From assembly GCA_964355655.1 (NCBI GenBank), contig CAYHDT010000001.1, forward strand, positions 21,588 to 85,587: a DNA stretch of 64,000 bases, read 5' to 3'. The notes beneath the pieces were generated by a model that was given only the letters and a program-made list of their open reading frames with translations, was not told the DNA's origin and did not search any database. Numbering within the stretch: the first letter of the stretch is position 1; each line of letters starts with the position of its first letter. Both the position numbers and the translations under genes were made by a program. This stretch comes from an uncultured Candidatus Saccharibacteria bacterium (GTDB lineage: Bacteria > Patescibacteriota > Minisyncoccia > Phycocordibacterales > SBAW01). Positions 706-64,000 of this stretch are shown piece by piece.

Positions 706-1694
706 TATTTTATGCAAAAGAAGGATGTTGCGCCTGAGCCGGCATCGACCGACTTAACAGAACCCGATAAGTTATCTTGGCAATTTTTCCAGAAATTTTC
801 TATCTGCTGCAATTTTTCAGGAGTTGAGCCGCCGGGTATGGTAAGACTAGGACCCGTAGCGCCCACCGGAGTTGGCGCCGCGTAAATGGCCGGGCCGGAA
901 TTATTTCCGGGTAACATAGTACGAAGTTCCTCGAGTGCGTTAAGGTTAAATTCCAAAAGTTTCGGATTTATAGTGTTGAGTATAAGCCAGCTTCCGGCCA
1001 AAAGCAGCAGTCCCCAGAGCGCGGCTTGGGCGCGGTGCTTCGCTTTTTCGATGTCGACCGCCGACTCAGATATCATATATCCGATGCCCGCGACCACTAT
1101 CATAACAACCGCAAAGAGTCCGCCGATGGTAATGAGCGCCCGGAAGATGGCGGAGACAAAAGCCGGAAAGTTGGTCCCTGTTTGGCCGCAATTGCCGCTC
1201 GGGTCTTGGCACGGCAGAGGTTCGAGCGGAACATAGTCGCACCTTCCATTTTGTTTACAAAAAGCGTTAGGATTTGACGTTTGTTGCGTCGGTGTTGATG
1301 GGGTGGCGGGCGGAGCCGTAAGTTGTTGTACGGAGGGACCACTTCCTGTAGAACCAGCAGTGCTGCAATTACTGAGATATTGACTCACAGCAGGCCCGTC
1401 GGCTCCCAAGGGATCATTAACTGTTAGTGGAGCGAGTGTTGTTCCGGGACAAGTGTAGGTAGCAGGAGTAGAGCCAACAGGAACTGAGCAGCTACCCCAT
1501 GTGAACCAGCCAGATGCGTTCCAATTTCCGCCTCGAACAGTGCAGGCAGTTTGATTATCTGCCAACGCAACTATTGGAACCAAGAGGAGTCCGGAAAATA
1601 ATAGTGAAACGAGGAGTTTTTTCATCCCGTTAGAAACCCAGCCTGCACGCAGGTTGGCAAAAATTTTCAATTTTTGGTTTCTAACGGGATTCAT
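705..1694 (-). CDS. Secreted Cys-containing protein with a C-proximal TM segment. Pilin-like, T4SS-associated hypothetical.
   Basis: Signal peptide MKKLLVSLLFSGLLLVPIVALA, Cys-rich ectodomain, TM AIFRALITIGGLFAVVMIVVAGIGYMI. ATGA overlap with the upstream gene. Sits in the VirB4 cluster. Confidence 0.5.
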   Translation of the reverse strand: MNPVRNQKLKIFANLRAGWVSNGMKKLLVSLLFSGLLLVPIVALADNQTACTVRGGNWNASGWFTWGSCSVPVGSTPATYTCPGTTLAPLTVNDPLGADGPAVSQYLSNCSTAGSTGSGPSVQQLTAPPATPSTPTQQTSNPNAFCKQNGRCDYVPLEPLPCQDPSGNCGQTGTNFPAFVSAIFRALITIGGLFAVVMIVVAGIGYMISESAVDIEKAKHRAQAALWGLLLLAGSWLILNTINPKLLEFNLNALEELRTMLPGNNSGPAIYAAPTPVGATGPSLTIPGGSTPEKLQQIENFWKNCQDNLSGSVKSVDAGSGATSFFCIK

Positions 1695-5271: not shown

Positions 5272-5931
5272 TTATTTGGAGCTTAGTTGTTCTACCTGCA
5301 GCGGCTTCTCCAGCTCGCCGGGGTTAAACAATTTGTAGAACAGCTCTATCACTTCTTCGGTGCCGAGCTTGACCACGCGCACCCCCGTGCGCACGAGCCC
5401 CTGCTCTATAACACTGACGCGCTGTTCGAGCTGAGTACGGTACTGCTCAAATTGCTCGTCATTTAAAGCGCCGGCGCCCTTGCCACTGCCGGGCAGCAGC
5501 GAGCCGAACATTCCTCCGCTGCGGTTAGCCAGCGCCGGGTCGTACGGCACGACAATAAAAAAGTTTTTTGTCATGATATTGGCGCGTTCGGTAAAATCTT
5601 TAATAAACGCCATGTACTCGCGTATCTGTATCTTCATCAACTCGTCGAGCTCCTTGGAGTATCGGTCCTGCAGGAGCGCGATGTAGGGGCGGATGTCGAG
5701 GTCGCGGCTTTGGATAAAAAATTCCACGGTAAACTCCAGTGAGTTAAGGAAGTTTTGGAACTGCCCGATGATGGCCTGCTGTTCGTCCTGGGACTTCAGC
5801 GCCAAGTTGATGCTCGAGGCCATTAGCAATACGCGCAACGAGCCGTCTTTAAGTATGATAACGCCGTCGCGCACTTCTTTAATAGGCACGAACTCCTGCG
5901 TCGCTTTAGATTTAATTTTTTGCTGGGGCAT
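5272..5931 (-). CDS. Hypothetical T4SS-associated protein, possibly a split VirB4 N-terminal domain.
   Basis: 219 aa soluble protein encoded between the PrgI/VirB3-like gene and virB4. The gene order VirB3-like, this ORF, VirB4 is an inference from synteny. Confidence 0.55.
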   Translation of the reverse strand: MPQQKIKSKATQEFVPIKEVRDGVIILKDGSLRVLLMASSINLALKSQDEQQAIIGQFQNFLNSLEFTVEFFIQSRDLDIRPYIALLQDRYSKELDELMKIQIREYMAFIKDFTERANIMTKNFFIVVPYDPALANRSGGMFGSLLPGSGKGAGALNDEQFEQYRTQLEQRVSVIEQGLVRTGVRVVKLGTEEVIELFYKLFNPGELEKPLQVEQLSSK

Positions 5932-6015
5932 AAAATTAACAAGTACAATACATACAACCAGAACAACAAGTACGATATTTTTTTATTGTATTTATTGTTT
6001 TCATTGTACTCGTTG
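5932..6015. repeat. Intergenic AT-rich inverted-repeat element. Paralog of 6466..6563.
   Basis: ACAACCAGAACAACAAGTACGATAT ... GTACTCGTTGTT, shared with the next spacer. Confidence 0.6.
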
Positions 6016-6465
6016 TTATATCTCGAATCCGCTGCGCTCGGCCGCAGTGACGCCCATTTGTGTACGGTCTTTTATGTTGAGCGACCAGGACAGGTCGCGG
6101 AGCTTGCTTTCGGACAGCTTTGGCACCGGCAGGTTTGATGGTTTTGCGGCCGGTACCGCCTTGCCTGCGGCGGGCACCCCTTCTTTATGGACTTTCCACA
6201 AGTAGAGTTTGCTCCCGAAAAAGTAGCCGGTCGCGTGCTCGACCGCGTGTATGAGCGGGCGGCCGTTTATCTCAAAAAAAGCGAGTCCGGCCGAAAAGGC
6301 CAGGACCGGGATGCCGAGGAGCACCGTTAGATACAGCGGCAGGAGCGTAAACATCAGCAGGCACAGGCCTCCCCCGCCGGCCAGCCAGATAAACTGCTTG
6401 AGCGTCAGCGGCCCGAAGATTTTATCCTCCACCTCGATAAATTGAGGAACCTGATACTGAGCCAT
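6016..6465 (-). CDS. PrgI/VirB3-like small membrane protein.
   Basis: N-terminus MAQYQVPQFIEVEDKIFGPLTLKQFIWL followed by two TM helices, located upstream of VirB4, as is typical of Gram-positive-type T4SS. Confidence 0.6.
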   Translation of the reverse strand: MAQYQVPQFIEVEDKIFGPLTLKQFIWLAGGGGLCLLMFTLLPLYLTVLLGIPVLAFSAGLAFFEINGRPLIHAVEHATGYFFGSKLYLWKVHKEGVPAAGKAVPAAKPSNLPVPKLSESKLRDLSWSLNIKDRTQMGVTAAERSGFEI

Positions 6466-6563
6466 CGCTATTAAGTATACAACCAGTACGACAAGTACGA
6501 TAAATACAATATAGGACAGCCTGAACTTCTTTGTACCTGTTGTTTATTGTACTTGTTGTTCTG
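6466..6563. repeat. Intergenic AT-rich inverted-repeat element. Paralog of 5932..6015.
   Basis: ACAACCAGTACGACAAGTACGATAAAT ... ATTGTACTTGTTGT. Confidence 0.6.
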
Positions 6564-7196
6564 TTACTCTGCTGGTTCGCGGTACGGGTCTGCGGTGTAA
6601 GGTTTTGGCGCAATTGGCGCAGCCGGAGAAGGGTTTGTTATTTGTGCCGGCGCCGTGCTGACAGTCTTTTGGGTCAGTATCATATCCGCAGGGTGGGGTG
6701 TGATGATTTTGGGGGCAGGAACCATAGGTTTTGGCGGTAAAGGCGCAGGGACAGGCGGCAATTTAGGTTGTGCCGGAGGAACTATCGGAGGTACAGGTGT
6801 GGAAATTTTGACGGACGCAGGGGCGATCGCCGGTCTGGTCACTTGAGCCGGGCTTGGCACAACTTTCTGTTTCTGGTAAGTTTTTTTCATCACCTCGCGT
6901 ATTTTTATAAACAAAAGATCATTTAAATCTCGAGCTATTGCATCCGCCTTGGTTGAATCGATACCCATGGTTTCTGCCAATACTGCTTGGAAGTCAGCGG
7001 TGTCGGTAAAACCAAGCATAACTGCGCTTGTTTCGTCCTCGAGCACCCCCGTTTGATCTAAATGGAGTTGGTATTTTTGAGCTATTTGTCGGATGGTCAT
7101 GAGCATCTCCGAGCTATATAACAGATATTTTATTTCCGGCGGCAAGGAATCATAGCGGGCTTTTGCTTCTTGAGGTGTGTAAGTTTTTTTTGTCAT
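6564..7196 (-). CDS. Hypothetical protein with a Pro-rich C-terminal half.
   Basis: 210 aa. N-terminal globular region, then a PxxP-rich tail (PVPPIVPPAQPKLPPVPAPLPPKPMVPAP). Confidence 0.55.
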   Translation of the reverse strand: MTKKTYTPQEAKARYDSLPPEIKYLLYSSEMLMTIRQIAQKYQLHLDQTGVLEDETSAVMLGFTDTADFQAVLAETMGIDSTKADAIARDLNDLLFIKIREVMKKTYQKQKVVPSPAQVTRPAIAPASVKISTPVPPIVPPAQPKLPPVPAPLPPKPMVPAPKIITPHPADMILTQKTVSTAPAQITNPSPAAPIAPKPYTADPYREPAE

Positions 7197-9395: not shown

Positions 9396-11277
9396 CCGCT
9401 TCGGTAATAATAGTCCCCGAGGCGAGCGCGCTCTTGTAGGCGGCGGTCACCGCCGCGACATCCGCCGCCGAGGCCACGCTTAAAGCTTTTGTTTGCAGGT
9501 CTTGCAGGACTGCAATGCCCGTGTTGGCGCGCGTGATATTGGCGTTATACGCGTCTATCTTCGGGTCGTACTGGTGGAGCGCAAACACCGCGTTAAAGGC
9601 GTGCGTCTGCGCTATTTTTTGTTTGTCCTCGCTTAAGCTCGGGCTCGACGAAGCCGCTTCCCAGCAGTTGGCCAGCGACTGTAGCTGCGACTGTGCGCTT
9701 TGGATGTCCGCGATAGACCCCTGCTGTGTCGAGCCGTATTGCTGGGCTATTTGCACCTTGCCTTGCATGTCGGTCAAAAGAGCCTGCGCGTCGGCCTGCG
9801 CCTGCTGCTGCGCCGGGGTCAAAAAGTTGGACGCGTAGCCGCTCTGGCCGCTGAGTTCGGAAAGTCCGCCCTGCAAGGTCCTAGTCATAAGCTGGGTAAT
9901 AAGCGCGCTGATGATTTCGTCAAAGCTTTTGGCCAAGTTGAGCGAGTCTTGGCTCACGCCGAGCGTCTTGTTGAGCGACTCAGCAATGGTCGAGCCCGGG
10001 GTTGTCACAACGGTATTGCAGGTGCGATACTGGCCCCCTTCTATGGCGGTTGTCTTTTGGCCCGGTCTTGTACCGCCGGCCGGCGGCCCGCTGGTAACCG
10101 TGCAGTTGACCTCCTTGGTCGAAGAGATAAATCCTCTGCCCAGAATATAATCCTGCTGTCTCTGGCCTACCGCTTGGTTTTGCGCGTTTGTAAGCCCTAC
10201 CTGCGCGTAGGCAAATGCGCCGAAGGGGTTGTTGGTTGGTATGGAGGTAAATTGCAACAGGCCGCCCCACCCTCCTTGGGAGAAGTTGCCGTTCATAAAG
10301 CCGGTAACATTTTTTATGATGCTGGTAAGACTGCAGGACATCGCTCCTTGGCGCGCGTAGCTTTGCGCTATGGCGACGCGTATTTGCAACTGAAACGGCG
10401 AGCAGAGGAACGAGAGCGACGAGCCGCGGATAAACTCCCCCGCCGCTTGGTCGGCCACATTGGTAAAGAATTGCTGGTAGTTGCGCACGAACGACGGCTG
10501 GCCGTTAAAACCGGAGTTTATCCAGTTGACGACGCTCGCCGTTATTTGCTGTATGGCGGCGCGCGCAATGCCGCGCGCGATGCAGTTTAAAAAGTTGTCG
10601 CGCACCGTGTCGTTAGTTTTGAGCGTGTTGCCGTAGGCGGTTTGAGCGTTAAGCGCAATATCGTTGACCGGCACTGCCACGAGCGTGTTGCCAACGATCA
10701 GCGTTCCTCCTATGCCGCCGCCAAGAAGGGCGCTTCCAAATAAACTTGCCGTGCACGATACTGCGCCGGCAATACCGGCCCCCAAGAGCGCGGTGCCAAG
10801 CCCGAGCCCGCCGCCATTGTCGTCGCCGGGCCCTCCGCCGCCGGAGAATATATAAGGGGTGCCCGAAACATTGTTGTTGTTAAGGTCATTTATTGTTTTC
10901 GGGACAAAGTTTGTAGTCGGCCCTCCGCCTCCGCCGCCCGTCCCTCCGCCCCCTCCCCCGAGCCAGTCCACTCCGGGGATGTTTGCTATACCCCCGGCTC
11001 CGCCGGCTGCTCCACCCGCGCCGCCGGTACCACCCCCGCTGCTCTGTATCCCGGTTCCGACGTTAGTATTCGAGCCTGTCGGCAGGGTCCCGGAGGAGGA
11101 ATTGTTGGCGTTTGTACCGGTACCGGTCGAACTTCCCGGTTTTAGCTGCCCGGTGCCGAAGGTGCCGGTGGTTGCGGCGGGCTTTACCGTCGCGCGGAAG
11201 AAGAAAAACCAGACGAGCCCGACCACCAGCGCAAATAGTGCCGCGGCAATGATGATAATAAGAGTGCGCCTGTTCAT
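9292..11277 (-). CDS. Membrane-anchored protein with Gly/Thr/Asn-rich low-complexity regions (T4SS cluster).
   Basis: N-terminal TM IIIIAAALFALVVGLVWFFFF. Long GGGTGG/NNNN tracts, then a Cys-containing globular domain and a Q/A-rich C-terminus. ATGA overlap with the upstream gene. Confidence 0.6.
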   Translation of the reverse strand: MNRRTLIIIIAAALFALVVGLVWFFFFRATVKPAATTGTFGTGQLKPGSSTGTGTNANNSSSGTLPTGSNTNVGTGIQSSGGGTGGAGGAAGGAGGIANIPGVDWLGGGGGGTGGGGGGPTTNFVPKTINDLNNNNVSGTPYIFSGGGGPGDDNGGGLGLGTALLGAGIAGAVSCTASLFGSALLGGGIGGTLIVGNTLVAVPVNDIALNAQTAYGNTLKTNDTVRDNFLNCIARGIARAAIQQITASVVNWINSGFNGQPSFVRNYQQFFTNVADQAAGEFIRGSSLSFLCSPFQLQIRVAIAQSYARQGAMSCSLTSIIKNVTGFMNGNFSQGGWGGLLQFTSIPTNNPFGAFAYAQVGLTNAQNQAVGQRQQDYILGRGFISSTKEVNCTVTSGPPAGGTRPGQKTTAIEGGQYRTCNTVVTTPGSTIAESLNKTLGVSQDSLNLAKSFDEIISALITQLMTRTLQGGLSELSGQSGYASNFLTPAQQQAQADAQALLTDMQGKVQIAQQYGSTQQGSIADIQSAQSQLQSLANCWEAASSSPSLSEDKQKIAQTHAFNAVFALHQYDPKIDAYNANITRANTGIAVLQDLQTKALSVASAADVAAVTAAYKSALASGTIITEADVTNATQDRTTLQSALASRNQQTADELQQCNAFK

Positions 11278-24530: not shown

Positions 24531-25808
24531 TTAGTGCGTACTTAGGTAGCTCCTGGTTATCGGTCCAAAATTCCCCAGAGCAGGGCTAATCCCTACCTGT
24601 GTTTGGAATTCAGCCAGTGCCGCACGAGTGAGAGGGCCAAAGTAGCCGGTTGGGCCAACCGTGGCCAGAGTGCGGGCAGGTGAGCCTTTGTTTTGAGAGA
24701 TTAAGAATTGTTGGAGAATCGTCACGTTGTTGCTCCGGATTCCTTCTCCCAAGTTGACCGCTATCGCTTTGACCTGCTGTCCAAAAGCAGAAGCGGAAGG
24801 CGTGTATGCGGGAGTTTGATTCTCGGTTTGCATCTGCTGTATAGCATTGAGTGCGGCAGATTGGCCGGCCCCGGCGGAAATAAGCTGGTTGTACTGTTGC
24901 TGTTGCTGAGCAGTAAGCGTCGGAGTCGCGGTAGGCCCGGAGCTTCCTTGTGACCCTGTTTGTGTCGGGTTTGTTGAAGGAGTTTGTGCAGGTGTTGGAG
25001 TCGGAATAGGCGAAGGTGTAGGAGCGGGGGTTGGAGTTGGGGTTGGGGTTGCCGACTGGGCGTAAACAATAGTGACCGCATTTGAATCTAAAGTAACCGC
25101 AGTCTGTGCCAAGGCCCTGCCTTGCAGGCGCGCGCCGGTGTTTAGTACGATTGCTGTTTGGTCCAATATATTTCCGCTGAAGTCGGCGGTCGTACCGATG
25201 GTCGTCTGCCCGGCGACGACCCAGAATATGTTCCCTGCTTGCGCGCCGCCACTAAGGACTATGCGCACACCCGAGCTCACGGTAAGCGTCTGCGCTATCT
25301 GGAATATCCAGACATCGTTTGCGTTGCCGGAGAGTGTTACGTCCGTCGGTATGGTGACACCCGTACCCCATTTGTAGACACCGGGAGCCAGTGTCAGTCC
25401 GCCGATGTTTCCGGCGCCCAGTTCGGTAATTCCGGCGGCTCTTCCCGCGGCGTCGGTATAAGAGGTCTGCATGTCGAGCACTGCCGTGGTTAGGTTGGCA
25501 GGAGTCGGATTGGCGTAGTCAGACGCGTATACCTTTCCTGTTACTAGTGCCGAGGTTGAAAACGCGCTTGCCGCAGGAAGTATCAGCGCGAATCCGGTGA
25601 TATAGCTTGCGGCAGAGGGGCTTACGCCGATGTCGCCGACCACAGAAGTGGCTCCGGTGGTTGAGATTCCAGTTTTTGCAAGAATTACGAAGGCGCTGGC
25701 AGACCCAAGGTTGACAGTTGCAGGCGAGGCCGCGAGCGTAACCACCGGCAACAATCCCACAATGAGCGCAAGCGCGAGCGATCCAAGCGTGTAAGTGTAT
25801 TTTTTCAT
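24531..25808 (-). CDS. Secreted DUF3494 (ice-binding-like) domain protein with a Pro/Thr linker and a C-terminal PG-binding domain.
   Basis: N-terminal LGSASAFVILAKTGISTTGATSVVGDIGVSP matches the ice-binding-like family signature by eye. PTPTPTPAPTPSP linker. C-terminal GYFGPLTRAALAEFQ. Confidence 0.6.
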   Translation of the reverse strand: MKKYTYTLGSLALALIVGLLPVVTLAASPATVNLGSASAFVILAKTGISTTGATSVVGDIGVSPSAASYITGFALILPAASAFSTSALVTGKVYASDYANPTPANLTTAVLDMQTSYTDAAGRAAGITELGAGNIGGLTLAPGVYKWGTGVTIPTDVTLSGNANDVWIFQIAQTLTVSSGVRIVLSGGAQAGNIFWVVAGQTTIGTTADFSGNILDQTAIVLNTGARLQGRALAQTAVTLDSNAVTIVYAQSATPTPTPTPAPTPSPIPTPTPAQTPSTNPTQTGSQGSSGPTATPTLTAQQQQQYNQLISAGAGQSAALNAIQQMQTENQTPAYTPSASAFGQQVKAIAVNLGEGIRSNNVTILQQFLISQNKGSPARTLATVGPTGYFGPLTRAALAEFQTQVGISPALGNFGPITRSYLSTH

Positions 25809-31916: not shown

Positions 31917-32684
31917 ATGCAAGAAACTGCCTCATCCCTTATAGCCTTGGGCCTCACTCCTACCGAAGCGGCCGTCTACCTTGCGGGCCTCTCCTACGAG
32001 TCGGTCACGGTCCAGGACCTGGTTCGGTCGACCAAGGTCAAGCGGCCCACTATTTACCACGCGCTCTCGCGATTGCAGGAGCGCGGGCTCGCCGCAGAAA
32101 AGCGCGTGGGCGAGCGGCTGCGCTTTTATATGTCGCCGCCCCAGAACCTCCATGTATTAGTAGAGGCGCAAAAGCAGCGGGTTGTCGCGCAGGAGAAGCT
32201 GCTCCAGGAGCTCCTGCCCTCTTTGTCCGCCCGGCAAAAGCGGGTCAAGCAAGACGGCGTAGGTGTTGTGCACTACAGTGGCATCGAGGGGATGAAGATG
32301 GTGATGGACATGGCTTTTTACTGCAAGACCAAGCGCTGGGATGTTATCGCCCCCTTTAACAACTTCCTTCGCGAGTACGACTCGGAGTATGCCAAGCAGT
32401 ACTTGCAGTCGCGCAAGTATCACGGCATCATCTCGCGCACTCTGTGGGAGAACACCAAAGATGGGAAACCCCTTTCTGAAGAAGAGAGGAGCGAGCGCAA
32501 TCCGCGGCTCATGCCCTGGGTCATGCACGGCAAGTTTAAGTCGATGATGGTACTTTTTGACGATAAGGTCGCTGTCTTTTCCCCGTATGACAAACTTTCC
32601 GCGGTGCTCATCACCAGCACAGAACTGCACGCGCTCTTCGCGTCGATGTTCGAAGGACTGTGGGAATTTTCGGAGCGATATTAA
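31917..32684 (+). CDS. TrmB-family transcriptional regulator (paralog 1 of 4).
   Basis: N-terminal wHTH LGLTPTEAAVYLAGL..VQDLVRSTKVKRPTIYHALSRLQERGL, and a C-terminal effector-binding domain. Confidence 0.75.
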   Translation: MQETASSLIALGLTPTEAAVYLAGLSYESVTVQDLVRSTKVKRPTIYHALSRLQERGLAAEKRVGERLRFYMSPPQNLHVLVEAQKQRVVAQEKLLQELLPSLSARQKRVKQDGVGVVHYSGIEGMKMVMDMAFYCKTKRWDVIAPFNNFLREYDSEYAKQYLQSRKYHGIISRTLWENTKDGKPLSEEERSERNPRLMPWVMHGKFKSMMVLFDDKVAVFSPYDKLSAVLITSTELHALFASMFEGLWEFSERY

Positions 32685-41684: not shown

Positions 41685-42605
41685 ATGGCGGAGCTTAAAA
41701 ACCTCAAGACCCAGTTTTTGGAATATTTAGAGATAGAGAAGGGGCGCTCTGTTAAGACGGTCGAAAATTATGACCGCTATCTGACGCGCTACCTTGCTCA
41801 CTCCAAGGTTACCTCCCCCCAGAAAATCACCGAGCAGTCGGTGCGCGAGTTCCGCATACATTTAAACCGGCAAGCCGGTACGAGCGGGACGATGAAGCAC
41901 AAAACGCAGAACTATTACATGATTTCACTCCGCGCGTTTCTTAAGTTCCTCCGCAAGCGCGATATAGAAAGCTTAAACCCCGAACGCATCGAGCTGGCCA
42001 AGGTCGGCCAGCGCGACCTCGACCTTATAACCTCCGATGAGCTTAACCGCCTTATCAACGGGCCCAAAGGCGACCCATCTTTGGCGGGCCTGCGCGACCG
42101 CGCCATACTGGAGCTTTTTTTTAGCACCGGTCTGCGCGTCTCGGAGCTATGCGCTCTTAACCGCGACATCGACCTGACACGCGACGAGTTTAGCGTGCGC
42201 GGCAAGGGCGAGAAAGTCCGCGTCGTTTTCCTATCCCCCGCGGCCAAGCAAGCTATTAAGGACTACGAGCAGAAGCGCGGCGACGTGGATGAGGCGCTGT
42301 TTATACAGATGGGCCCCTCCTCCGCCAAGGCTTCGGAGGGCGGGCGCGACTTGCGCTTAACGCCTCGGTCAATTGAGCGGATTGTAAAAGGCTACGCAAT
42401 CAAAGCCGGCATCACGCGCAAAGTAACCCCGCACGTCATAAGACATTCTTTCGCGACTGATTTATTGGAAAACGGCGCCGACCTGCGCGCAGTCCAGGCA
42501 CTCTTAGGCCACGCCAACATAGCAACCACACAGGTTTACACCCACATAACCGACAAGCACCTGCGCGAAGTCCACAAAAAGTTCCACGGCCAGCGGAGGA
42601 AATAA
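41685..42605 (+). CDS. Tyrosine recombinase XerC/XerD family.
   Basis: Catalytic residues R..HxxR..Y (HVIRHSFAT...LLGHANIATTQVYTHI). Confidence 0.85.
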   Translation: MAELKNLKTQFLEYLEIEKGRSVKTVENYDRYLTRYLAHSKVTSPQKITEQSVREFRIHLNRQAGTSGTMKHKTQNYYMISLRAFLKFLRKRDIESLNPERIELAKVGQRDLDLITSDELNRLINGPKGDPSLAGLRDRAILELFFSTGLRVSELCALNRDIDLTRDEFSVRGKGEKVRVVFLSPAAKQAIKDYEQKRGDVDEALFIQMGPSSAKASEGGRDLRLTPRSIERIVKGYAIKAGITRKVTPHVIRHSFATDLLENGADLRAVQALLGHANIATTQVYTHITDKHLREVHKKFHGQRRK

Positions 42606-43856: not shown

Positions 43857-44144
43857 ATGAAACATGCATTTAATGCTCAGTTGCAGGTGCAATTTCTCAA
43901 GCAGGGAAAGTACACTGTTGCCTACTCACCTGCCCTAGATATTTCAACTTCCGGTAAAAACCAAACGCAGGCGCGCAAGCGTTTTGCCGAGCTCGCGAAC
44001 ATCTTTATACGCGAAATAATGGAGAGGGGTACGGCACACCAGATACTCACAGAGCTGGGCTGGACTCATCGTGCCCATGCCGGTTGGGCGCCACCTAAAA
44101 TGACTAAAAGCCCCGTGTCTGTACGCATCCCTGTCGCCGCGTAA
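43857..44144 (+). CDS. HicB-like antitoxin.
   Basis: 95 aa, YTVAYSPALDISTSGKNQTQARKRFAE matches the HicB N-terminal fold pattern. Immediately upstream of hicA. Confidence 0.55.
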   Translation: MKHAFNAQLQVQFLKQGKYTVAYSPALDISTSGKNQTQARKRFAELANIFIREIMERGTAHQILTELGWTHRAHAGWAPPKMTKSPVSVRIPVAA

Positions 44145-44150
44145 TCTTTC

Positions 44151-44378
44151 ATGGCCCGTATTGGGACTATTCATTGGAAGAAGTTCGAAAAGTTTCTTCT
44201 TGCCGTGGGTTGCTCTTTTGAACGCGAGGAAGGAGACCATCGCATTTATTGGAAAGAAGGATTAAAAAGACCGATAGTGGTGCCCCGCGACACCCTCCCG
44301 CCTTTTATTGTGTTGAACAATCTGCGAACTTTGGGCGTATCGCGTGACGAGTATTTAAAAATCATCGGCAGAAAATGA
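44151..44378 (+). CDS. hicA: HicA-family mRNA interferase toxin.
   Basis: 75 aa, GDHRIY...PIVVP...IVLNNLRTLGVSRDEY motifs. Confidence 0.7.
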   Translation: MARIGTIHWKKFEKFLLAVGCSFEREEGDHRIYWKEGLKRPIVVPRDTLPPFIVLNNLRTLGVSRDEYLKIIGRK

Positions 44379-44415: not shown

Positions 44416-44448
44416 AAGCCGCGCTTGGGAGCGCGGCTTGGTGTTGTC
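44416..44448 (+). terminator. Candidate terminator after hicA.
   Basis: AAGCCGCGC-UUGGGA-GCGCGGCUU hairpin, followed by a weak U-tract. Confidence 0.45.
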
Positions 44449-44696
44449 TACAGGTCTACCTCAACTATCTGCAGGTGGTCGTGCTCTCCTCTTGGCAGGC
44501 TCATTGCATCTTGAGCTTCTTTGTAAGAGTCGCCTGACCTCACCACAAACAGGTGTAGATTTTGCAGCTCGGGGACTGCCTCCGATTCTTCATCCCACGC
44601 GCCCCGAGATTGGTGGGTAATCGTCAGTTTGAGAGTAGCGGCGACGATGAGGTATTTCGTAGTCATAGTGTCCTCCCTGGTTGCGATATTCATCAC
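44448..44696 (-). CDS. Hypothetical protein.
   Basis: 82 aa ORF. Confidence 0.35.
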   Translation of the reverse strand: MMNIATREDTMTTKYLIVAATLKLTITHQSRGAWDEESEAVPELQNLHLFVVRSGDSYKEAQDAMSLPRGEHDHLQIVEVDL

Positions 44697-44792
44697 GAAC
44701 CCGAAGAATCATCATGCCGCGGCCTCTCGATGAGAATTCGAACGAATCAAATTCTCAATAGAGGGGAGAAATTTCTTTCTCCCAGTTCCCGA

Positions 44793-44987
44793 TCAGTCCA
44801 GGTCATCCTCCCAGAACTGTTCGTCGTCCCAGCGGTCCTTCTTGTCGTAAAATTCTTGGCGCTGCTCCCGAGTGTAGGCGTTGTCCTCAACGGGGACGTC
44901 GAGGTCGGTCGAGTAGTAGTACTCCGGTGTCATGTTGGCCTCCAGTTGGTTTCGATGAACTTTGACTCTCTGCGATAAGTGTAGCAC
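44793..44987 (-). CDS. Small acidic hypothetical protein.
   Basis: 64 aa, D/E/W-rich. Confidence 0.35.
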   Translation of the reverse strand: MLHLSQRVKVHRNQLEANMTPEYYYSTDLDVPVEDNAYTREQRQEFYDKKDRWDDEQFWEDDLD

Positions 44988-45000
44988 AATGAGTGAATAA

Positions 45001-45019
45001 TGTCAAGTTATATTGATGA
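45001..45019. promoter_or_regulatory. TGTCAAGTTATATTGATGA imperfect inverted repeat upstream of TrmB paralog 2, with a TATAAT box at 45031-45036.
   Basis: Shares the TGTCA-N-TGAYR pattern with the sites at 48310, 48355 and 62300. Confidence 0.4.
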
Positions 45020-45066
45020 TAAAAATTTGATATAATTGCTTTGTAAAATAAGCTTTAAATACATGT

Positions 45067-45840
45067 ATGTCAAAAATTATTGATGAAATAGGAAACAAAG
45101 CTTTGTCAGATAAGCTCCAAGAACTCGGTTTGAGCGAAAAGGAGGCTGCTGTGTACTTGGCCCTTTTGCCTCGGCAAGATACGGGTACGAGTGTACTAAT
45201 TAAGACGACGGGTCTACATGGGCAGTTTGTATATGATGCTTTGGCTAAACTGGAGGTCCTAGGTCTTGCCAAACATGTAGTCCAGGCAGGCCGGAAGAAG
45301 TTTTCGGCCAACCCACCCCAGCGCTTACTCTCGCTAATAGAAGAAAAGCGCCTTTCGGCGCAGTCGGTGGCCAAAGAGCTCCAAGCTCGCTTTGCGGGTA
45401 AGCACGAACAGAGCTTCGAAGTCCATCAGGGAGACTCGGCTTTTATTGCACATCAAATGGATCTACTGCGTCGGGCACCGCAGGGCGGCACGTTGGACGC
45501 CATTGCAACCGAGACAGAGCGGTTTCAAAAAACGTTTGAAGAGTATGGCATGTGGGACGAATACTTGCGATTGCAGGTGGAAAAGGAGATAAAGATCCGT
45601 TACTTAGGATCGGAGGCACAGCGGGGCCGTCTGCAAAAGCGTGAGCAAAGCGAACTATCCTGGACCTATAAAATCCTGCCGGGGCAGTCGACCGGCAACA
45701 TCAGTATCGAAGTGCATGCCGAGACGGTCACCTTTGTTACCTACGGCGAGCCGGTACTCTGTTTTACTCTCTCCAGCAAAGAAGTTGCACGAGGCTACCG
45801 TGAGTTTTTCAATTCTGTTTGGGCGTTGGCTAAGAAATAA
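45067..45840 (+). CDS. TrmB-family transcriptional regulator (paralog 2).
   Basis: N-terminal LGLSEKEAAVYLALL wHTH. Confidence 0.7.
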   Translation: MSKIIDEIGNKALSDKLQELGLSEKEAAVYLALLPRQDTGTSVLIKTTGLHGQFVYDALAKLEVLGLAKHVVQAGRKKFSANPPQRLLSLIEEKRLSAQSVAKELQARFAGKHEQSFEVHQGDSAFIAHQMDLLRRAPQGGTLDAIATETERFQKTFEEYGMWDEYLRLQVEKEIKIRYLGSEAQRGRLQKREQSELSWTYKILPGQSTGNISIEVHAETVTFVTYGEPVLCFTLSSKEVARGYREFFNSVWALAKK

Positions 45841-48757: not shown

Positions 48758-48806
48758 GGGCGGTTGCAAGGTTCAAACCTCTGCAACCGCCCTACTTGTT
48801 TTTATG
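48758..48806. terminator. Rho-independent terminator, shared with the convergent TrmB gene.
   Basis: GGGCGGUUGCA...UGCAACCGCCC hairpin followed by UUGUUUUUA on the plus strand. The stop of the minus-strand TrmB gene abuts it. Confidence 0.6.
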
Positions 48807-49548
48807 CCTCAGCTATTTCCCAAAGCGTATTAAATATGGCTCTAAAGCTGTCTGCGATTTCTTTGCTGTCTATGATGATGCCGAATACCGGTCCTTTGAG
48901 TGCCATAACGGCGACGCAGTTTCTATAAACAAAAATGTCGGAACTCATGGGCATGCGGTCGGGTGATATATATCTGCGCTCGGTGTTTGGCGGTATCTCG
49001 GAACCCGACTTGCCTCCCTGGCGTGTATAGATGTAGCGCGAGTGGATTCCGTTCCTAACTCTTTTATCAGAAAAATCGTCCAGTTCCTTTTGTGTGTATA
49101 TGGTTGCCAAGGAGTCCCGAGAGAACAAAATAAATATTTCCTCCCCTTTTTTTAAGGTTAAAACCTCTTCGCGCATAGCGGTAATTCCTTCTTTGCCGCT
49201 AAAGAACCTCACCAGCGGTCGCTCGCCGGCGCCTTCGAACTTTTTGAGCAGCTCAGGCAGAAAGTCGTTGAGTTCAAGCTCCTTGGCCTCGAACTCTTTT
49301 TTCTTTAGTTCAAAAATACGCTTCAGATATTCAGGAGATTCTGGGGCAAAGTATGTTTTCTTACCCTCTTCGTAGGTGCTCATGAGACCCTTCTTCATCA
49401 AGCTTTCCAGTTGCACATAGGCGGTTGAGCGCACTATTTTTGCTTGCTTAGCTAGCTGGTCGGCCGTGGCGCGCCCTATTTCCAGAGCGGCAATGTAAAT
49501 TTTGGCCTCTTTTTCCGACAGCCCAACATCCTGGAGCTCTTTTAGCAT
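48802..49548 (-). CDS. TrmB-family transcriptional regulator (paralog 3).
   Basis: Start reassigned to MLKELQDVGLSEKEAKIYIAALEIG (ATG at 49548). The palindrome GTACATTGTAC lies at 49552-49562. Confidence 0.7.
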   Translation of the reverse strand: MLKELQDVGLSEKEAKIYIAALEIGRATADQLAKQAKIVRSTAYVQLESLMKKGLMSTYEEGKKTYFAPESPEYLKRIFELKKKEFEAKELELNDFLPELLKKFEGAGERPLVRFFSGKEGITAMREEVLTLKKGEEIFILFSRDSLATIYTQKELDDFSDKRVRNGIHSRYIYTRQGGKSGSEIPPNTERRYISPDRMPMSSDIFVYRNCVAVMALKGPVFGIIIDSKEIADSFRAIFNTLWEIAEA

Positions 49549-49904
49549 GAGTACATTGTACGGCACAAAACCAAATTTTGGGTACGAATAACCCCCGCAA
49601 TGGAGGTGGCGGGGGTTTGTGTGTAAGCCTTCAGAACCGGCTTTCAAGAGTTAGGATTGCCTCTTGTTTTCAATTTATTGTCGAAGTTTGTCGGTAATCC
49701 GCAATATCTCGACAGTGAGTTTAGAAGGTTACACATTGGTGCAGCTGCAATGCACAGAAAGAACATTTTTGTTATGTCGTTCGCGACAGGGTAGAACGCG
49801 CTCGCACAACATTGGTCTGAAGTAACTATACTCCCATCAAGGACAGTGTAAAGGACATAGGTGGGGATAACCTGCCTCTGCCGGCAAGGCGGGCTGTCCT
49901 TTAG

Positions 49905-55700: not shown

Positions 55701-56333
55701 ATGATAAAAGCGATTATTTTTGATTTGGACCGGTGTATCCTAAACCCGAAATCGCTCGATGTTGATATTCTCGACCCTGTTTTGGCGCCTTTATATGCGT
55801 CGAATGTATCAGCTGAACTAAAACAGAAAATGAGCGAGGTGTTGTGGCACACTGCGTTTGAGGACGCAGTTGTGCTATATGGAGTACCGGCAGATATTGC
55901 GCAGCGCATGCGTGTTGAGTGCCGCCGGCTCGAGATACCTGCGGGAAAGGAAATATATTCTTATGGTGACGAATCGTACATACCGGCCTTGCCGGTCAAG
56001 AAATTTTTAGTGACCAGCGGTTTTAGGAACTTTCAAACTTCAAAAATCACTAAGTTGGGTATTGCAGGTATGTTTGATGGAATTTTTATTGACGAAAGTG
56101 ATGATTTGACTATCCGAAAGAAAAAGAAAAAGATTTTTGAGGAAATATTAGGAGCTAATGATTTGCAAAAGGAAGAGGTTTTGGTAGTGGGTGACAATCC
56201 TATTTCTGAATTGAAAGCGGCTAAGGAGCTTGGCATTGTCGCTATACAGACCCTCCGTCCGGGCGTGCAAAAATGGGACCAGGCCGACTACCATGTTACT
56301 TCGTTGTCCGAATTAGCTGAGCTTATTAAATAA
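55701..56333 (+). CDS. HAD-superfamily hydrolase.
   Basis: Motif I IIFDLD, C-terminal VGDNPISE..A. Start at MIKAII (55701). Confidence 0.75.
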   Translation: MIKAIIFDLDRCILNPKSLDVDILDPVLAPLYASNVSAELKQKMSEVLWHTAFEDAVVLYGVPADIAQRMRVECRRLEIPAGKEIYSYGDESYIPALPVKKFLVTSGFRNFQTSKITKLGIAGMFDGIFIDESDDLTIRKKKKKIFEEILGANDLQKEEVLVVGDNPISELKAAKELGIVAIQTLRPGVQKWDQADYHVTSLSELAELIK

Positions 56334-59777: not shown

Positions 59778-61307
59778 TTACCGCGCAAATTCGATCGCGC
59801 GGGTTTCGCGGAAGACGATAACCTTTATTTCGCCGGGATATTTAAGCTCATTTTCTATGCGCAGCGCTATTTCGCGCGCTACTTCGCGGGCCTGGAAGTC
59901 GGTCATCTTGTCGGGTCTGACAAAGACCCGCACCTCGCGGCCGGCGCTTATGGCGTAGGACTTTTCGACGCCCTCAAACGAGTTGGCGATAGCCTCGATG
60001 TCAGAGAGGCGTTTGATGTACTGCTCGACAGAGTCGCGCCGCGCGCCTGGGCGGCCACCCGAAATAGCGTCGGCCACTTGGACAATGTAGGACTCCGGTG
60101 TTTCATACGGGTATTCTTCGTGGTGGGCCTGCATGGCTTTTATTACCTCCTCTTGTACTCCGAATTTTTGGAGGATGCGGCGGCCTATCTCGACATGCGT
60201 CCCTTGTACCTCGTGGTCGAGCGCCTTGCCGATGTCATGCAGGAGCGCGCCGGCGCGTGCAACAGCCGGGTTGGCGCCGACCTCCTCGGCTATCATGCCC
60301 GCGATGTGCGCCATCTCCACCGAGTGCTGCAGCACGGACTGCCCGTAGCTGGTGCGGAAGTGGAGTCTGCCGAGTATCATAAGCAGTCGCGGGTCGAGGT
60401 TAAGCACGCCCACCTCAAAAGCCGCGGCCTCGGCCTTTTCTTTAATAATTTTGTTTACGTCCGCTTTGGCCTTCTCCACCGTTTCTTCAATTTTTGCCGG
60501 CTGGATGCGTCCGTCGATAATCAGGTTTTCAAGAGCGACGCGGGCAATGGCGCGGCGCAGCGGGTCGTATGAAGAAAAGAGTATAGAGCCCAGCGTGTCG
60601 TCGATAATAACCTCTACCCCCGTTTCACGCTCAAACGCTTTGATGTTGCGGCCCTCTTTGCCGATAATCTTACCCTTAAGGTCATCGTTGGGGATAGTAA
60701 TAGCGGTCGCCATGGTGTCGGAGGCTACCGAGTTGCCGAGGCGGTGTATGGCGGTAACGAGGATATCTTTAGCTTTGCGGTCGAGTCGGTCCATGCCATC
60801 GCGCTCGAGCTTGGTGACACGCATCATCATATCTTCGCTGTTTTCGCGCTCGAGCTCCGCATAAAGTTGCTCCTTGGCCTGCTCTTTAGAGAGCCCGGCG
60901 ACTTTTGCCAGCTCGGTGGCGCGCTCCTCTAGCAATGCTTCGGCGCGCTCTTTTATTTGGCGGACTTCCTCTATTTTTCCTTTGACCGCCTGGACTTCCG
61001 AGTCGAGTTCTCCCTGCTTTTTGTCCAGCGACTCCTCACGCTTAAAGACGCGCTCTTCCTGGCGCGTTACTTTCTCTTCTTTTTCGGCAATCGTGGTCTC
61101 GAGCGCGGAAAGGACCTCGGCGGCCTTGTTCTGCGCCTCTCCGGTTATTTTTTTAGCTTCTTCTCTGGCGTCAAGCAAGATGTGCTTGACTTCGACTTCT
61201 ATCGAACCTTTACGCGATAAAACGAGCAGCCATCGGAATACAAATCCTATTACCGCACCCCCGAGCGCGGAGAGCGCCAGCAGGGCAAACACTATTTTTA
61301 ATGACAT
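59778..61307 (-). CDS. rny: Ribonuclease Y.
   Basis: N-terminal TM, coiled-coil, KH domain, HD domain (HDIGK). Confidence 0.9.
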   Translation of the reverse strand: MSLKIVFALLALSALGGAVIGFVFRWLLVLSRKGSIEVEVKHILLDAREEAKKITGEAQNKAAEVLSALETTIAEKEEKVTRQEERVFKREESLDKKQGELDSEVQAVKGKIEEVRQIKERAEALLEERATELAKVAGLSKEQAKEQLYAELERENSEDMMMRVTKLERDGMDRLDRKAKDILVTAIHRLGNSVASDTMATAITIPNDDLKGKIIGKEGRNIKAFERETGVEVIIDDTLGSILFSSYDPLRRAIARVALENLIIDGRIQPAKIEETVEKAKADVNKIIKEKAEAAAFEVGVLNLDPRLLMILGRLHFRTSYGQSVLQHSVEMAHIAGMIAEEVGANPAVARAGALLHDIGKALDHEVQGTHVEIGRRILQKFGVQEEVIKAMQAHHEEYPYETPESYIVQVADAISGGRPGARRDSVEQYIKRLSDIEAIANSFEGVEKSYAISAGREVRVFVRPDKMTDFQAREVAREIALRIENELKYPGEIKVIVFRETRAIEFAR

Positions 61308-61492
61308 ATTGGGATTTCATGAAATATATATTGAGAACGCCCTTACAATACCAGACAAATTACTTAACCGCAAATTGGCTCGTACGGAGAAAAAGTAGGT
61401 TTTCGGGAGTGTTTCGCAGGCTGACGAGCCGAGAATCAGCAAATTTCCAGCAGGAAATTATGCGACTCCCGAAGGCCTAGCTTTTTCGGAGA

Positions 61493-61560
61493 TTTATTTC
61501 TTAGCCGGGACGGCTTGGTGGGTCAAAATGTCGTCCACAATGCCGTACTTTTTAGCCTAT
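61493..61560. repeat. Direct repeat copy A: a duplicated clpP 3' end (last about 20 codons plus stop).
   Basis: 66 of 68 nt identical to 63692..63759. Copy A still encodes ...[20 protein letters not shown] on the minus strand. Confidence 0.8.
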
Positions 61561-62295
61561 TTCCGGCCCCAACCTTTCCCAAAGTTGTTGCCACACCACG
61601 CGCATAGTGTCGGCCAGATGCCGGTTTTCTACCAAGACGGCAAAAGGGGACGGACCCTCCAGGTCAATAAGGGCAACCTTGTCACCATAGATATTTATAT
61701 CGGTTTTGAACTTGGGCGCGGTAATAAACTTGGTTTTACGCAAAAATTTTAGATTGTCTTTTGAAAAGTTGCGCGCAAAGGGTACATCTCGAGAGATGGA
61801 GCGGATAAGTATGTCGCGCCGCGCGCGCTCCTTTGGGAACCAATCAAAAATCCTAGGCGGCAACTCCGCCCGCAGGTCTTCCAAATCTTCATACGCCAGT
61901 ATCTCCTTTTTTTCTCGCAACATGTCCGCGTACACCTCCTCGACCCCCTGCATTCCGTCATAAAAAGTGACGCGAGGTTTTTTTGCGGATTTGTTATTGA
62001 TTGCGAGCAAGTCCGGCAGTATGCGCTCAAGCCCGCTGAGGCGGACTTTTTGCATCTCAACCAACCGCTCTGGATTGACCGCGCTGTAGACGTGCCGCTT
62101 GCCGCGCTTGGTTTCGTTGATATATCCGCGCTCGCGTAGCTCATCAATGAAAGTATAGATAGTGGAGCGGTTAACCCCGGACTTGCCGGCAAGAGCAAGC
62201 ATGGTCGCCTCGCCGAGCTCTAATGCCGCCAAATAAACTTTGGCCTGCATCGAGGTCATGCCGAGCAAAGGGAGCAAATTCTCGTCTATTTCCAC
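61552..62295 (-). CDS. TrmB-family transcriptional regulator (paralog 4).
   Basis: N-terminal LPLLGMTSMQAKVYLAALELG wHTH. GTG start at 62295. Confidence 0.7.
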   Translation of the reverse strand: MEIDENLLPLLGMTSMQAKVYLAALELGEATMLALAGKSGVNRSTIYTFIDELRERGYINETKRGKRHVYSAVNPERLVEMQKVRLSGLERILPDLLAINNKSAKKPRVTFYDGMQGVEEVYADMLREKKEILAYEDLEDLRAELPPRIFDWFPKERARRDILIRSISRDVPFARNFSKDNLKFLRKTKFITAPKFKTDINIYGDKVALIDLEGPSPFAVLVENRHLADTMRVVWQQLWERLGPEIG

Positions 62296-62299
62296 AATA

Positions 62300-62315
62300 T
62301 GTCAATTTTATGACA
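62300..62315. promoter_or_regulatory. TGTCAATTTTATGACA perfect inverted repeat immediately upstream of TrmB paralog 4.
   Basis: TGTCA-N6-TGACA, 5 nt upstream of the start codon. Confidence 0.5.
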
Positions 62316-63262
62316 CTTATTATATCTTTGCAATAGGCCAGTTTTTCCCACTTCCATAAGCTTTTACAGAGATTATGTTTGACTTTTACTCTTATAATGT
62401 TATAATCATGACAGTTAAAAGTTCATCAAAAACAGATTGGGTACTGGCGGCTCCCTTTGTTTTGCCGAACATCGGCAGAAGAGAGGGGGTCGTCATAACA
62501 CGAGCATATACCGATCGGGCAACCGATGTGCTTATCGAGCGTAGGTAGTTCCTGCGTACGACTCCATGGGCCCCTTGAAAAACGGGGGATGAGCCAGCTT
62601 GGTTGGCTACCGCGCTGAAAGAGGCGGTTAAGTAGAAACACGGAAGTGTGTAATAGATAGGAAGAGTGGAAGGTTGTGAGAGAAGACCCAGCAGGGAAGC
62701 CTGCTGGCAATTAGCAACCGAACTCGGGTAAGTTGTACCACGTCTAGCTTCTGTGTGACGAAAAGGAGGCACACTCTCTCGGTGAGCGTGACCTCTAACT
62801 AGAAAGTTTTCCGGTCGTCAGAGGGTCCTAAATCGAACGCATCGAAACTCTTCTAGGTTTTGATGTAGTAGGGAATCCCGAGTACTTCGCAATTTCATCC
62901 CAAGTCAGTTGAAGCTGATGTTGTGGTGCGATGGAGCAAACTGCGCGAAGCAAACGACGTACTAGCCAATACCCTGGAGTGGGCCCAGGTGGCCATAATT
63001 GGTTGGCCAAGGCAATCCGACGACAGCGGTACCAGCCGTCTATCGGATGACGATGCGACCAAAAGGCTTTAGGGCTTGTTTGGTTGAAATACATAAGGGA
63101 GAAGTGACGTGTCGATCGCTGCTTCTCCCAACCAATATTGTTCTTTTTAGTTAGCTATAGATTTATAGGCGGAAACGAAAGCTTCCGCCCTCTACTGAGA
63201 ACCCGATTCATTCGGATTCTCATCGAGAAAGTTCGTTGATACAAATGAGGAGAGGGTAAGCC
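62316..63262. ncRNA. ORF-free region of about 950 nt with extensive potential secondary structure. Candidate structured ncRNA or intron-like element. Its class could not be identified.
   Basis: No ORF of 60 aa or more on the plus strand. The minus-strand ORFs are not protein-like. Hairpins are present, e.g. GGCGGAAACGAAAGCUUCCGCC at 63169-63190. Confidence 0.3.
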
Positions 63263-63655
63263 ATGCCGCCTGAATCGAAGCAAATACTCTGCCTCCTCAT
63301 ATTCGGTCCCATTCTCGCATTTGGGATTGCATACGGTAGCGAACGCTACAACGAGTCGAGATGGAGCGAACAAGACTTGGTGTATATCCAAAAAATGCGC
63401 CAGGAGTATGCCTACGGAGATATTCCTGACGGGACTCTGCTTGTCCGCCGGGATGGAAGCATCTTTATGGTGCCGCACGGTCCGTATCATCGCTACATCG
63501 TTCTTGTGGCACCTGGCCAGACTCGTCGCATGGCATACCTGTTCGGTGGCGGTGGTCAGGACGACAATATGTACAACATCCTGCGACTCATCCGACCAGG
63601 CGAACTAGACTATAACGAGTACGCCGCCAAGTTTCTGCAACAGACGCTAGATTAG
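63263..63655 (+). CDS. Hypothetical protein.
   Basis: 130 aa, RBS GAGGAGAGGG before the ATG, followed by a terminator. Confidence 0.5.
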   Translation: MPPESKQILCLLIFGPILAFGIAYGSERYNESRWSEQDLVYIQKMRQEYAYGDIPDGTLLVRRDGSIFMVPHGPYHRYIVLVAPGQTRRMAYLFGGGGQDDNMYNILRLIRPGELDYNEYAAKFLQQTLD

Positions 63656-63660
63656 CCAAG

Positions 63661-63697
63661 GAAGCCCCGGATTTTTCCGGGGCTTCTCTTTTATTTC
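63661..63697. terminator. Rho-independent terminator, bidirectional (clpP and the small gene).
   Basis: GAAGCCCCGG-AUUUUU-CCGGGGCUUC followed by UCUUUUAUUU. Confidence 0.75.
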
Positions 63698-64000
63698 TTA
63701 GCCGGGACGGCTTGGTGGGTCAAAATGTCGTCGACAATGCCGTACTTCTTAGCCTCGTCCGCCATCATAAAGTAGTCGCGGTCAACGTCCTTCTCTATCT
63801 TCTCGAGCGGTTGGCCCGTGGCTTTGGAGAGTATTTTGTTAAGCCGCTCGCGGGTGGCGACGATATGCTTGGCCGTAATTTCGATGTCGGTGGCCTGACC
63901 CTGCGCCCCGCCCCATGGCTGATGGATCATCACCTCGGCGTTCGGCAGAGCAAAGCGCTTGCCCTTTTGGCCCGCCGCCAAAATAACCGCCGCCGCGGAG
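63691..64000 (-). CDS. clpP: ATP-dependent Clp protease proteolytic subunit. C-terminal part only, as the gene continues beyond the window end.
   Basis: ...[23 protein letters not shown]...[21 protein letters not shown], a ClpP signature around the catalytic His. Confidence 0.85.

Follow-up and report, generated by a model that had tools for sequence, protein, structure and literature searches.

A TrmB-type regulatory module inserted between two copies of the clpP 3' end in a Patescibacteria genome

Phages, integrative and conjugative elements (ICEs) and integrative and mobilizable elements (IMEs) that integrate at the 3' end of a gene are bounded by attL and attR repeats derived from the target, keep the target gene intact and have an empty site in relatives. 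In their cis-mobilizable derivatives (CIMEs), the interior is free of an integrase. These traits are all present in the segment described here, which lies between clpP and rny in a 64,000-nt stretch (hereafter the window) of contig CAYHDT010000001.1 (positions 21,588 to 85,587, forward strand; assembly GCA_964355655.1) from an uncultured Candidatus Saccharibacteria bacterium of the phylum Patescibacteriota. In the window, a 2.13-kb block carrying a TrmB-family regulator gene, a long region free of open reading frames (ORFs) and a small gene (orf130) is bracketed by direct repeats of the clpP 3' end. Unlike the integrative elements, the block has no recombination module or remnant of one, carries host regulatory cargo with a home beside ruvC, occurs only once, joins clpP through microhomology at the TrmB stop codon and has a host-like composition.

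Homology-facilitated illegitimate recombination is a process in transformable bacteria. Its features, together with those of template switching at microhomologies, are also found at this locus: an insert flanked by a short target duplication, a junction with 7 nt of microhomology, the lack of a gene for a dedicated enzyme and a unique event. Template switching of this kind is described by the model of break-induced replication mediated by microhomology (MMBIR; PMC2621351). The locus differs from such cases in that the mechanism is read here from the scar only. To our knowledge, such pathways have not been described for Patescibacteria.

Regulatory modules of this kind are native to these bacteria; the block is a complete one and not foreign-looking cargo. 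We consider it probable on balance, if only by a modest measure, that the block arose in a single event in which host recombination relocated or acquired a TrmB gene and its divergent unit, and that it is not a self-mobile element.

The direct repeat is 66 nt long and spans 61493-61558 and 63690-63755. The two copies are identical at 64 of the 66 positions and share a 43-nt core without any mismatch; a comparable pair arose in none of 100 dinucleotide-preserving shuffles. On the minus strand, the repeat consists of two bases of a Glu codon, the last 20 complete codons of clpP, the stop codon and one further base. The original prediction, made from the sequence alone, had placed a repeat of 68 nt here with 66 identical positions. 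The repeat is real, whereas alignment of the copies gives the shorter length, and the second coordinate had been set 2 nt too high. Both mismatches are synonymous in the clpP frame, as predicted: AAA/AAG for Lys at 61536/63733 and GTG/GTC for Val at 61551/63748. Copy B (63690-63755, minus strand) is the functional 3' end of clpP, where the Pfam CLP_protease alignment runs to the end of the model. Copy A (61493-61558, minus strand) is a displaced, non-functional clpP end that matches ClpP residues 83-102 at 100% in tblastn, and its innermost 7 nt (61552-61558; AGGCTAA when read on the minus strand) double as the last Gly codon and the stop codon of the TrmB gene. A check for further copies, which the prediction had proposed, gave no second 66-mer pair in the window or in the 113 loci collected (L-numbered). 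A larger repeat involving the 139-aa genes on the two flanks was considered and rejected, since the two proteins are unrelated. Separately, a 23-nt inverted match (83% complementary) is found between a HAD-hydrolase gene (56219-56241) and copy B (63732-63754); it is probably due to chance.

The state of the site before insertion can be seen in relatives. With RNase Y as the probe and one genome taken per GTDB species, 80 Paceibacteria loci were collected (RNase Y identity 61-90%), labeled as Kaiser-, Adler-, Nomura-, Taylorbacteria and others. In about 70 of the 80 species, clpP and rny share a strand, with the clpP stop codon 48-440 nt upstream of rny, so that the empty site expected by the original prediction is found. 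None of these about 70 species has a TrmB gene, a homologue of the ORF-free region or orf130 between clpP and rny, and none has a second clpP 3' end. The closest genome (L044; RNase Y 90% and ClpP C-terminus 96% identical) has a clpP-rny gap of 76 nt, the rny-proximal part of which aligns with the window spacer to the left of copy A. In the window, the native left flank is rny itself (59778-61307, minus strand), which encodes an RNase Y of 509 aa with the Pfam domains RNase_Y_N, KH and HD. The native clpP-rny spacer (61308-61492, minus strand) retains the old clpP-proximal hairpin (61469-61489) and a conserved rny promoter-proximal block, and its rny-proximal half can be aligned with L044, L008 and L010. 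On the other side, clpP (63691-64000, minus strand; Pfam CLP_protease) is cut by the end of the window. The complete gene in the replicate assembly L001 encodes 210 aa and is preceded by genes for Fic and an 82-aa protein and by tig.

Compared with the ancestral site, 2,131-2,138 bp have been added in the window, along with a target duplication of 59-66 bp. At the level of sequence comparison, the relatives show that clpP-rny is the ancestral order and that the 2.13-kb segment is a genuine insertion into the last 20 codons of clpP, because about 70 species have neither the insert nor the repeat and three assemblies agree. Two relatives carry unrelated genes between clpP and rny, namely hypothetical-protein genes in L020 (6399-7947) and a lyase-like gene with a HAD-like hydrolase gene in L025 (1945-4314), both without duplication of the clpP 3' end. 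The clpP-rny spacer therefore tolerates insertions and is a recurrent insertion point.

The whole insert with both repeat copies is present in three independent assemblies from replicate 0.1-μm filters of Hainich groundwater well H52, and its structure is partly covered in two Logan assemblies as well. Coverage at the locus is low, about 4-5x. Every assembly retrieved for this population carries the insert; a search for an empty site within the population found no record of the window's exact RNase Y, and the contig with the closest ClpP (L113) stops 61 nt past the clpP stop codon and says nothing on an empty site. In L001, rny is called as two genes of 212 and 233 aa (5569-7098), and a cluster of seven substitutions compared with the window falls within rny, where coverage is about 4x. 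The split and the substitutions most likely stem from sequencing or assembly errors and do not mark a pseudogene. Seeming strain differences of L005 in the ORF-free region turned out to be a run of N, and a polymorphism was rejected.

The contents between the repeats are as originally described, that is, a TrmB ORF, an ORF-free stretch (967 nt here), a small gene and a terminator. The TrmB-family gene (61552-62295, minus strand) is full length with a GTG start and encodes 247 aa, of which residues 11-76 match the winged-helix family PF01978 (E=5.2e-14). The C-terminal two thirds (170 residues) match no Pfam family, and comparison with the PADLOC defense-system proteins gave just generic helix-turn-helix (HTH) similarity. 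Among 213 homologues, the best are 72-75% identical and equal in length, and the winged-helix region is kept throughout. Where the contigs are long enough, the orthologues (57-75% identity) lie in the order ruvC, one or two small variable genes, TrmB, (HTH_20) yebC and ruvB. The small variable genes beside ruvC, here called slot genes, are transcribed divergently from TrmB. One orthologue, in L093, lies off the ruvC locus and near rny.

The 40 nt before the TrmB start are kept among the orthologues and the window copy, including a palindrome of the form TGTCA-N6/7-TGACA. In the window, this palindrome (TGTCA-N6-TGACA, 62300-62315) lies just upstream of the TrmB start and was aligned with L088, L092 and L093. 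It may be an autoregulatory operator, and TrmB probably represses both its own promoter and the divergent unit, judging from the gene arrangement. In these respects, the module resembles described TrmB regulators with divergent targets, which have a PF01978 winged helix, a palindrome by their own start and a divergent target unit. It differs in that the match is limited to the DNA-binding domain and in that the family is expanded. Four TrmB-family genes are found in the 64 kb (31917-32684 and 45067-45840 on the plus strand, 48802-49647 and 61552-62295 on the minus strand), and the family is therefore strongly expanded in this small genome.

The divergent unit ends with orf130 (63263-63655, plus strand), which encodes a small, putative membrane protein of 130 aa with an N-terminal hydrophobic helix and is preceded by a ribosome binding site (RBS), GGAGAGGG, at 63248-63255. 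Its codon score is better in frame than off frame. A word-seeded search of a 15-billion-protein collection returned only orf130 itself; when 1.84 billion cluster representatives were scanned exhaustively with HMMER, two remote homologues emerged (three clusters including orf130). One of them, P0123, is 42% identical to orf130 over the matched stretch and has the same C-terminal sequence, YNEYAAKFLQQ. The position of its gene (L112, 2673-2969) should be noted. It occupies the slot between ruvC and a TrmB orthologue (68% identical), after a cupin gene, and is preceded by a diverged copy of the hairpin motif described below. The other homologue, P0122 (L111, 4849-6441), shares its island with an integrase of the rve family and with DNA methylases, on an alphaproteobacterial-like contig with GcrA and Crp genes. 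The family is extremely rare and patchy, being found in a Paceibacteria slot and in an rve-integrase island, which suggests horizontal movement of the gene. The small proteins encoded divergently from TrmB in L088, L092 and L093 were also considered as relatives of orf130 and were rejected, as no similarity was found. The AlphaFold2 model of orf130 (pLDDT 38) is uninformative and was left unused.

At the TrmB-side junction, the C-terminus of TrmB ends at the same residue as those of the orthologues (LGPEIG followed by the stop codon, compared with LGPVVG in an orthologue), and the orthologue DNA ends in GGC TGA or GGA TAA. The 7 nt AGGCTAA are common to the TrmB end (A GGC TAA) and to the start of copy A (GAG GCT AA of clpP, codons -21/-20). 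We regard this overlap as a microhomology junction, because the natural end of TrmB already supplies those bases. At the other junction, the start of the repeat falls within the T tract behind a terminator hairpin. This intrinsic terminator of the plus-strand unit (63660-63687, or to 63699 with the T tract) has a 12-bp stem, and its T tract enters copy B. The counterpart terminator in L112 is likewise followed by TTTTTCTTT, by analogy with which a short overlap at the terminator-side junction is plausible. The insert is ordinary for this genome in composition, with a tetranucleotide distance that ranks 41 of 61 windows, and the TrmB codon score (0.077) is close to that of the host (0.084 ± 0.055).

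The block appears to be a copy of the ruvC-side unit of TrmB plus divergent slot, because the TrmB orthologues and P0123 are found there and the composition is host-like. The source would be the ruvC-side locus of the same genome or of a very close relative, and the transfer would have proceeded through host recombination or repair, which the findings fit better than integration by an enzyme of the element. The first joint would have formed at the 7-nt microhomology between the TrmB stop and clpP, and the second at the T tract common to the terminator of the unit and the clpP stop region. Since the joints lie 59-66 nt apart in the target, the clpP end would have been duplicated, and the essential protease gene would therefore have survived. 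Three variants can be considered: template switching or illegitimate joining at two short homologies (MMBIR-type), homology-facilitated illegitimate recombination with DNA of a sibling lineage, and a single Campbell-type crossover, after which microhomology deletion removed the redundant part of clpP. After such an event, TrmB would read on to the former clpP terminator, and one terminator would serve both the plus-strand unit and the intact clpP.

Several observations weigh against this explanation. Neither a donor copy nor a donor genome was seen, and relocation and acquisition both fit. An attL/attR pair would likewise appear as a target duplication of 59-66 nt reaching 1 nt beyond the stop codon, and a XerC/D-like recombinase 20 kb away could in principle act in trans. 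At both mismatches of the repeat, the closest relatives, L044 and L113, match copy A and not the functional copy B. After a plain duplication, the rough chance that both changes fall in the constrained copy B is about 0.06. These states fit the arrival of a clpP end with slight differences (attP-like or a donor allele) somewhat better than decay after duplication. The regulatory role given to TrmB comes from gene arrangement only, and the case for microhomology at the terminator-side junction is one of analogy with L112.

The plus-strand unit begins with a near-consensus sigma-70-type promoter (62379-62406) that is divergent from TrmB and matches 11 of 12 positions: TTGACT, a 16-nt spacer and an extended -10 element, TG-TATAAT. 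Transcription would start at about 62413. The leader that follows, AAAGTTCATCAAAA, resembles that of a paralogous unit at 44.9-45.0 kb in the window. From here, an orphan region of about 750 nt (62413-63167, plus strand) extends without any protein gene. In the 967 nt between TrmB and orf130, plus-strand ORFs reach 57 aa at most, and stop codons number 16-18 per plus-strand frame, equal to random expectation. The region is predicted to fold strongly. Its minimum free energy (MFE) z score is -6.6 to -6.9 on the plus strand compared with -3.2 to -4.4 on the minus strand, and 28 control 750-nt windows of this genome gave a mean of -0.30, a standard deviation of 1.52 and a minimum of -3.7, which places the region about 4 standard deviations beyond the controls. 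The local folding signal peaks at 62300-62800 and 63000-63200, and the transcribed strand is G-rich. From these predictions, a structured untranslated RNA seems the most likely identity of the ORF-free region; it would be a long regulatory leader of orf130 or else a separate RNA in the "first gene" position of the slot.

The original prediction had proposed an RNA component or a degraded integrase remnant here. The folding statistics are the sole support for the former, and no Rfam family matches it; an Rfam scan of 6 kb at E≤1 gave only tRNA, and cmscan of 62296-63270 at E≤10 gave only two chance snoRNA matches and no group I/II intron or other family. The latter, as an integrase or any other pseudogene, found no support, as six-frame Pfam searches of the region are empty, stop codons occur at random density, and no long plus-strand ORF opens when TGA, TAG or TAA is read as sense. 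The region has no homologue in the 113 loci, no blastn match (word size 11) among 50,697 phage and 72,556 plasmid records, and no match in IMG/VR for three 20-22-mers taken from it. The region shares a length above 500 nt, strong predicted structure, a G-rich strand and an accessory or variable location with the large bacterial noncoding RNAs OLE, GOLLD, ROOL and HEARO, which are all in Rfam. It differs from them in having no covariance-model match at E≤10, in being a single sequence without covariation and in having no known protein partner. We know of no literature specifically on large RNAs of Patescibacteria.

The RNA assignment is a thermodynamic prediction on a single sequence, and this weighs against it. 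The ORF-free part could instead be decayed coding DNA, namely dead slot genes, or functionless spacer in which the structure is incidental, a reading that we regard as possible though rather unlikely. Protein genes occupy the equivalent position in all comparable units of relatives, and since no homologue of the region was found anywhere searched, neither conservation nor covariation can be demonstrated. However, the z score of -6.9 is strand-specific and far outside the control windows, no ORF fragments and no residual Pfam similarity are detected, and tblastn of the slot proteins of relatives against the region gives nothing. The promoter in front of the region also argues against decay, and 750 nt of junk would be unusual in a small gene-dense genome.

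For the block as a whole, the strongest competing explanation is that it is a non-autonomous site-specific integrative element, with the 66-nt repeats as attL and attR and an attP that contained the clpP 3' end. The tyrosine or serine recombinase would be encoded elsewhere or lost, and excision would be possible. The direct repeats come from the 3' end of the target, end 1 nt past the stop codon and leave the gene intact, the empty site exists in relatives, and the window has a XerC/D-like recombinase. The synonymous differences, with a functional copy unlike the allele of the closest relatives, look as if the element had brought a clpP-like end. We still consider this explanation unlikely, and it keeps what weight it has because the mismatch states are equally expected from an attP with such an end.

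The following results point the other way. As originally noted, no integrase lies inside: Pfam searches of all ORFs and of the six-frame translation of the ORF-free part reveal no recombinase or transposase domain, and no excisionase or detectable remnant is found inside or adjacent. Beyond clpP, the neighbors are Fic, tig and NusA, and no recombinase adjoins the insert. The insert ends lack terminal inverted repeats, and the target duplication of 59-66 bp compares with 2-15 bp for transposons, insertion sequences and miniature inverted-repeat transposable elements. The sole recombinase in the window is the XerC/D-like tyrosine recombinase (41685-42605, plus strand; Phage_integrase and SAM-like N domain). 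Its counterpart in L100, and only there, adjoins a TrmB paralogue module on the side away from the divergent unit, and the segment consisting of xth, the toxin-antitoxin (TA)-like ORFs, the module and TrmB is inverted between the window and L100. Because it is syntenic with L100, this gene seems housekeeping-like. No second copy of the element was found in the 80 related genomes, in the matches of Joint Genome Institute (JGI) metagenomes or in viral contigs; the RNA likewise has no second instance, and a clpP fragment does not lie behind any other TrmB orthologue. The cargo matches a conserved chromosomal locus, and the supposed att boundary coincides with the natural stop of TrmB through microhomology. 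The claim that the repeats are the footprint of site-specific integration by a mobile element is thus not borne out, given the host-type cargo, the host-like composition, the single copy and this microhomology. We do not file the block as an integrative element, because neither a recombinase of its own nor a recurrence was found.

Ahead of orf130, at a distance of 35 nt from its start codon, is a conserved two-hairpin motif (63168-63228, plus strand). It consists of a variable GC-rich hairpin followed by CTCTAYTGAG-stem-GA-loop-TCG-stem'-CTCATCGAGA and is generally placed 25-40 nt ahead of the next start codon. Within the window, a short blastn match joins 63188-63228 to 44725-44765, where a second copy spans 44725-44790 (minus strand). 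Further copies are present in L021 (about 9650-9720), L049 (about 2720-2760), L099, L100 (3605-3692), L101 (135-222), L103 (2192-2278), L110 (about 4320-4360) and L112 (2570-2640). L043 has three copies (about 9820-9865, 10250-10300 and 10775-10820), one for each small ORF. In every locus with readable neighbor genes, the motif adjoins the unit of a TrmB-family gene. In the 13 copies compared, hairpin 2 is 95.6% paired and four pairs show compensatory changes (22 cells); none of 500 shuffles reaches its covariation score, and slid registers are all far worse. The motif is absent from the Rfam scan, and its pattern has no IMG/VR match.

The second copy belongs to a second module of the same architecture (44448-45840), composed of a TrmB paralogue (45067-45840, plus strand) and a divergent minus-strand unit. 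Behind its promoter and a leader resembling the one in the insert, this unit has an acidic ORF of 46 aa, then the motif, an ORF of 72-82 aa and a terminator. Different cargo genes are found at the orthologous loci, L100 and L103, and between these two the motif is an island of homology flanked by non-homologous genes. Between xth and this module, two ORFs of 95 and 75 aa (43857-44378, plus strand) are toxin-antitoxin-like in size and arrangement.

The motif could be an element of RNA processing, attenuation or translation control or, more speculatively, a recombination site for cassette exchange. In the motif only, the modules resemble integron cassettes with attC sites: it is an imperfect palindrome with a covarying variable center, it forms an island between non-homologous small ORFs, and L043 has one per ORF. 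They differ from integrons in that no IntI-type integrase lies by the arrays and the neighbors are TrmB-family regulators. In addition, the motif is located on the transcribed strand, upstream of each RBS, an arrangement that differs from attC and is also compatible with a purely RNA-level role. One could imagine that the TrmB-linked units of Paceibacteria are hypervariable cassette arrays in which the covarying hairpin serves as an attC-like recombination site without IntI, that slot cargo is exchanged there, and that the clpP insertion is a by-product of integrase-independent or Xer-dependent mobility. If so, the 750-nt RNA would be slot cargo that replaced a protein gene, and the type of mobility would be one undescribed so far in Patescibacteria. 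We consider this very improbable. The motif does not explain the insertion, because the boundaries of the clpP insert lie away from it.

Close to negligible in probability is that the window shows the ancestral gene order, with a repeat produced by local slippage or duplication, or that the repeat is an assembly artifact, the outcomes named in the original prediction as its refutation: just the existence of the repeat at low coverage speaks for it, whereas about 70 species have clpP by rny without intervening genes, the usual place of the TrmB orthologue is elsewhere, and the repeat is not an assembly artifact because the three replicate assemblies show an identical structure and match base for base across both junctions, as do the two Logan assemblies, which cover the structure in part.

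Elsewhere in the window, a gene at 24531-25808 (minus strand) encodes a protein with an ice-binding-like domain (PF11999, E=7e-77) and a peptidoglycan-binding domain, and one at 705-1694 (minus strand) encodes a protein with a T4SS-pilin domain. Such surface or secreted proteins are typical of episymbiotic Patescibacteria.

Returning to relocation or acquisition of the module by host recombination, the main finding is an unusual but explainable rearrangement. It offers a clean, datable case in which a tiny, gene-dense Patescibacteria genome re-sites a module of regulator plus target in an essential gene without lethality. It also cautions that a duplicated 3' end alone does not prove an element to be integrase-driven. 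Greater importance may attach to the by-products, namely the orphan RNA of about 750 nt and the covarying motif that marks the boundaries of hypervariable slots. Neither is in Rfam, and both are worth following up; if the RNA or the motif is functional, it would be an addition to the very short list of noncoding RNAs known from the phylum.

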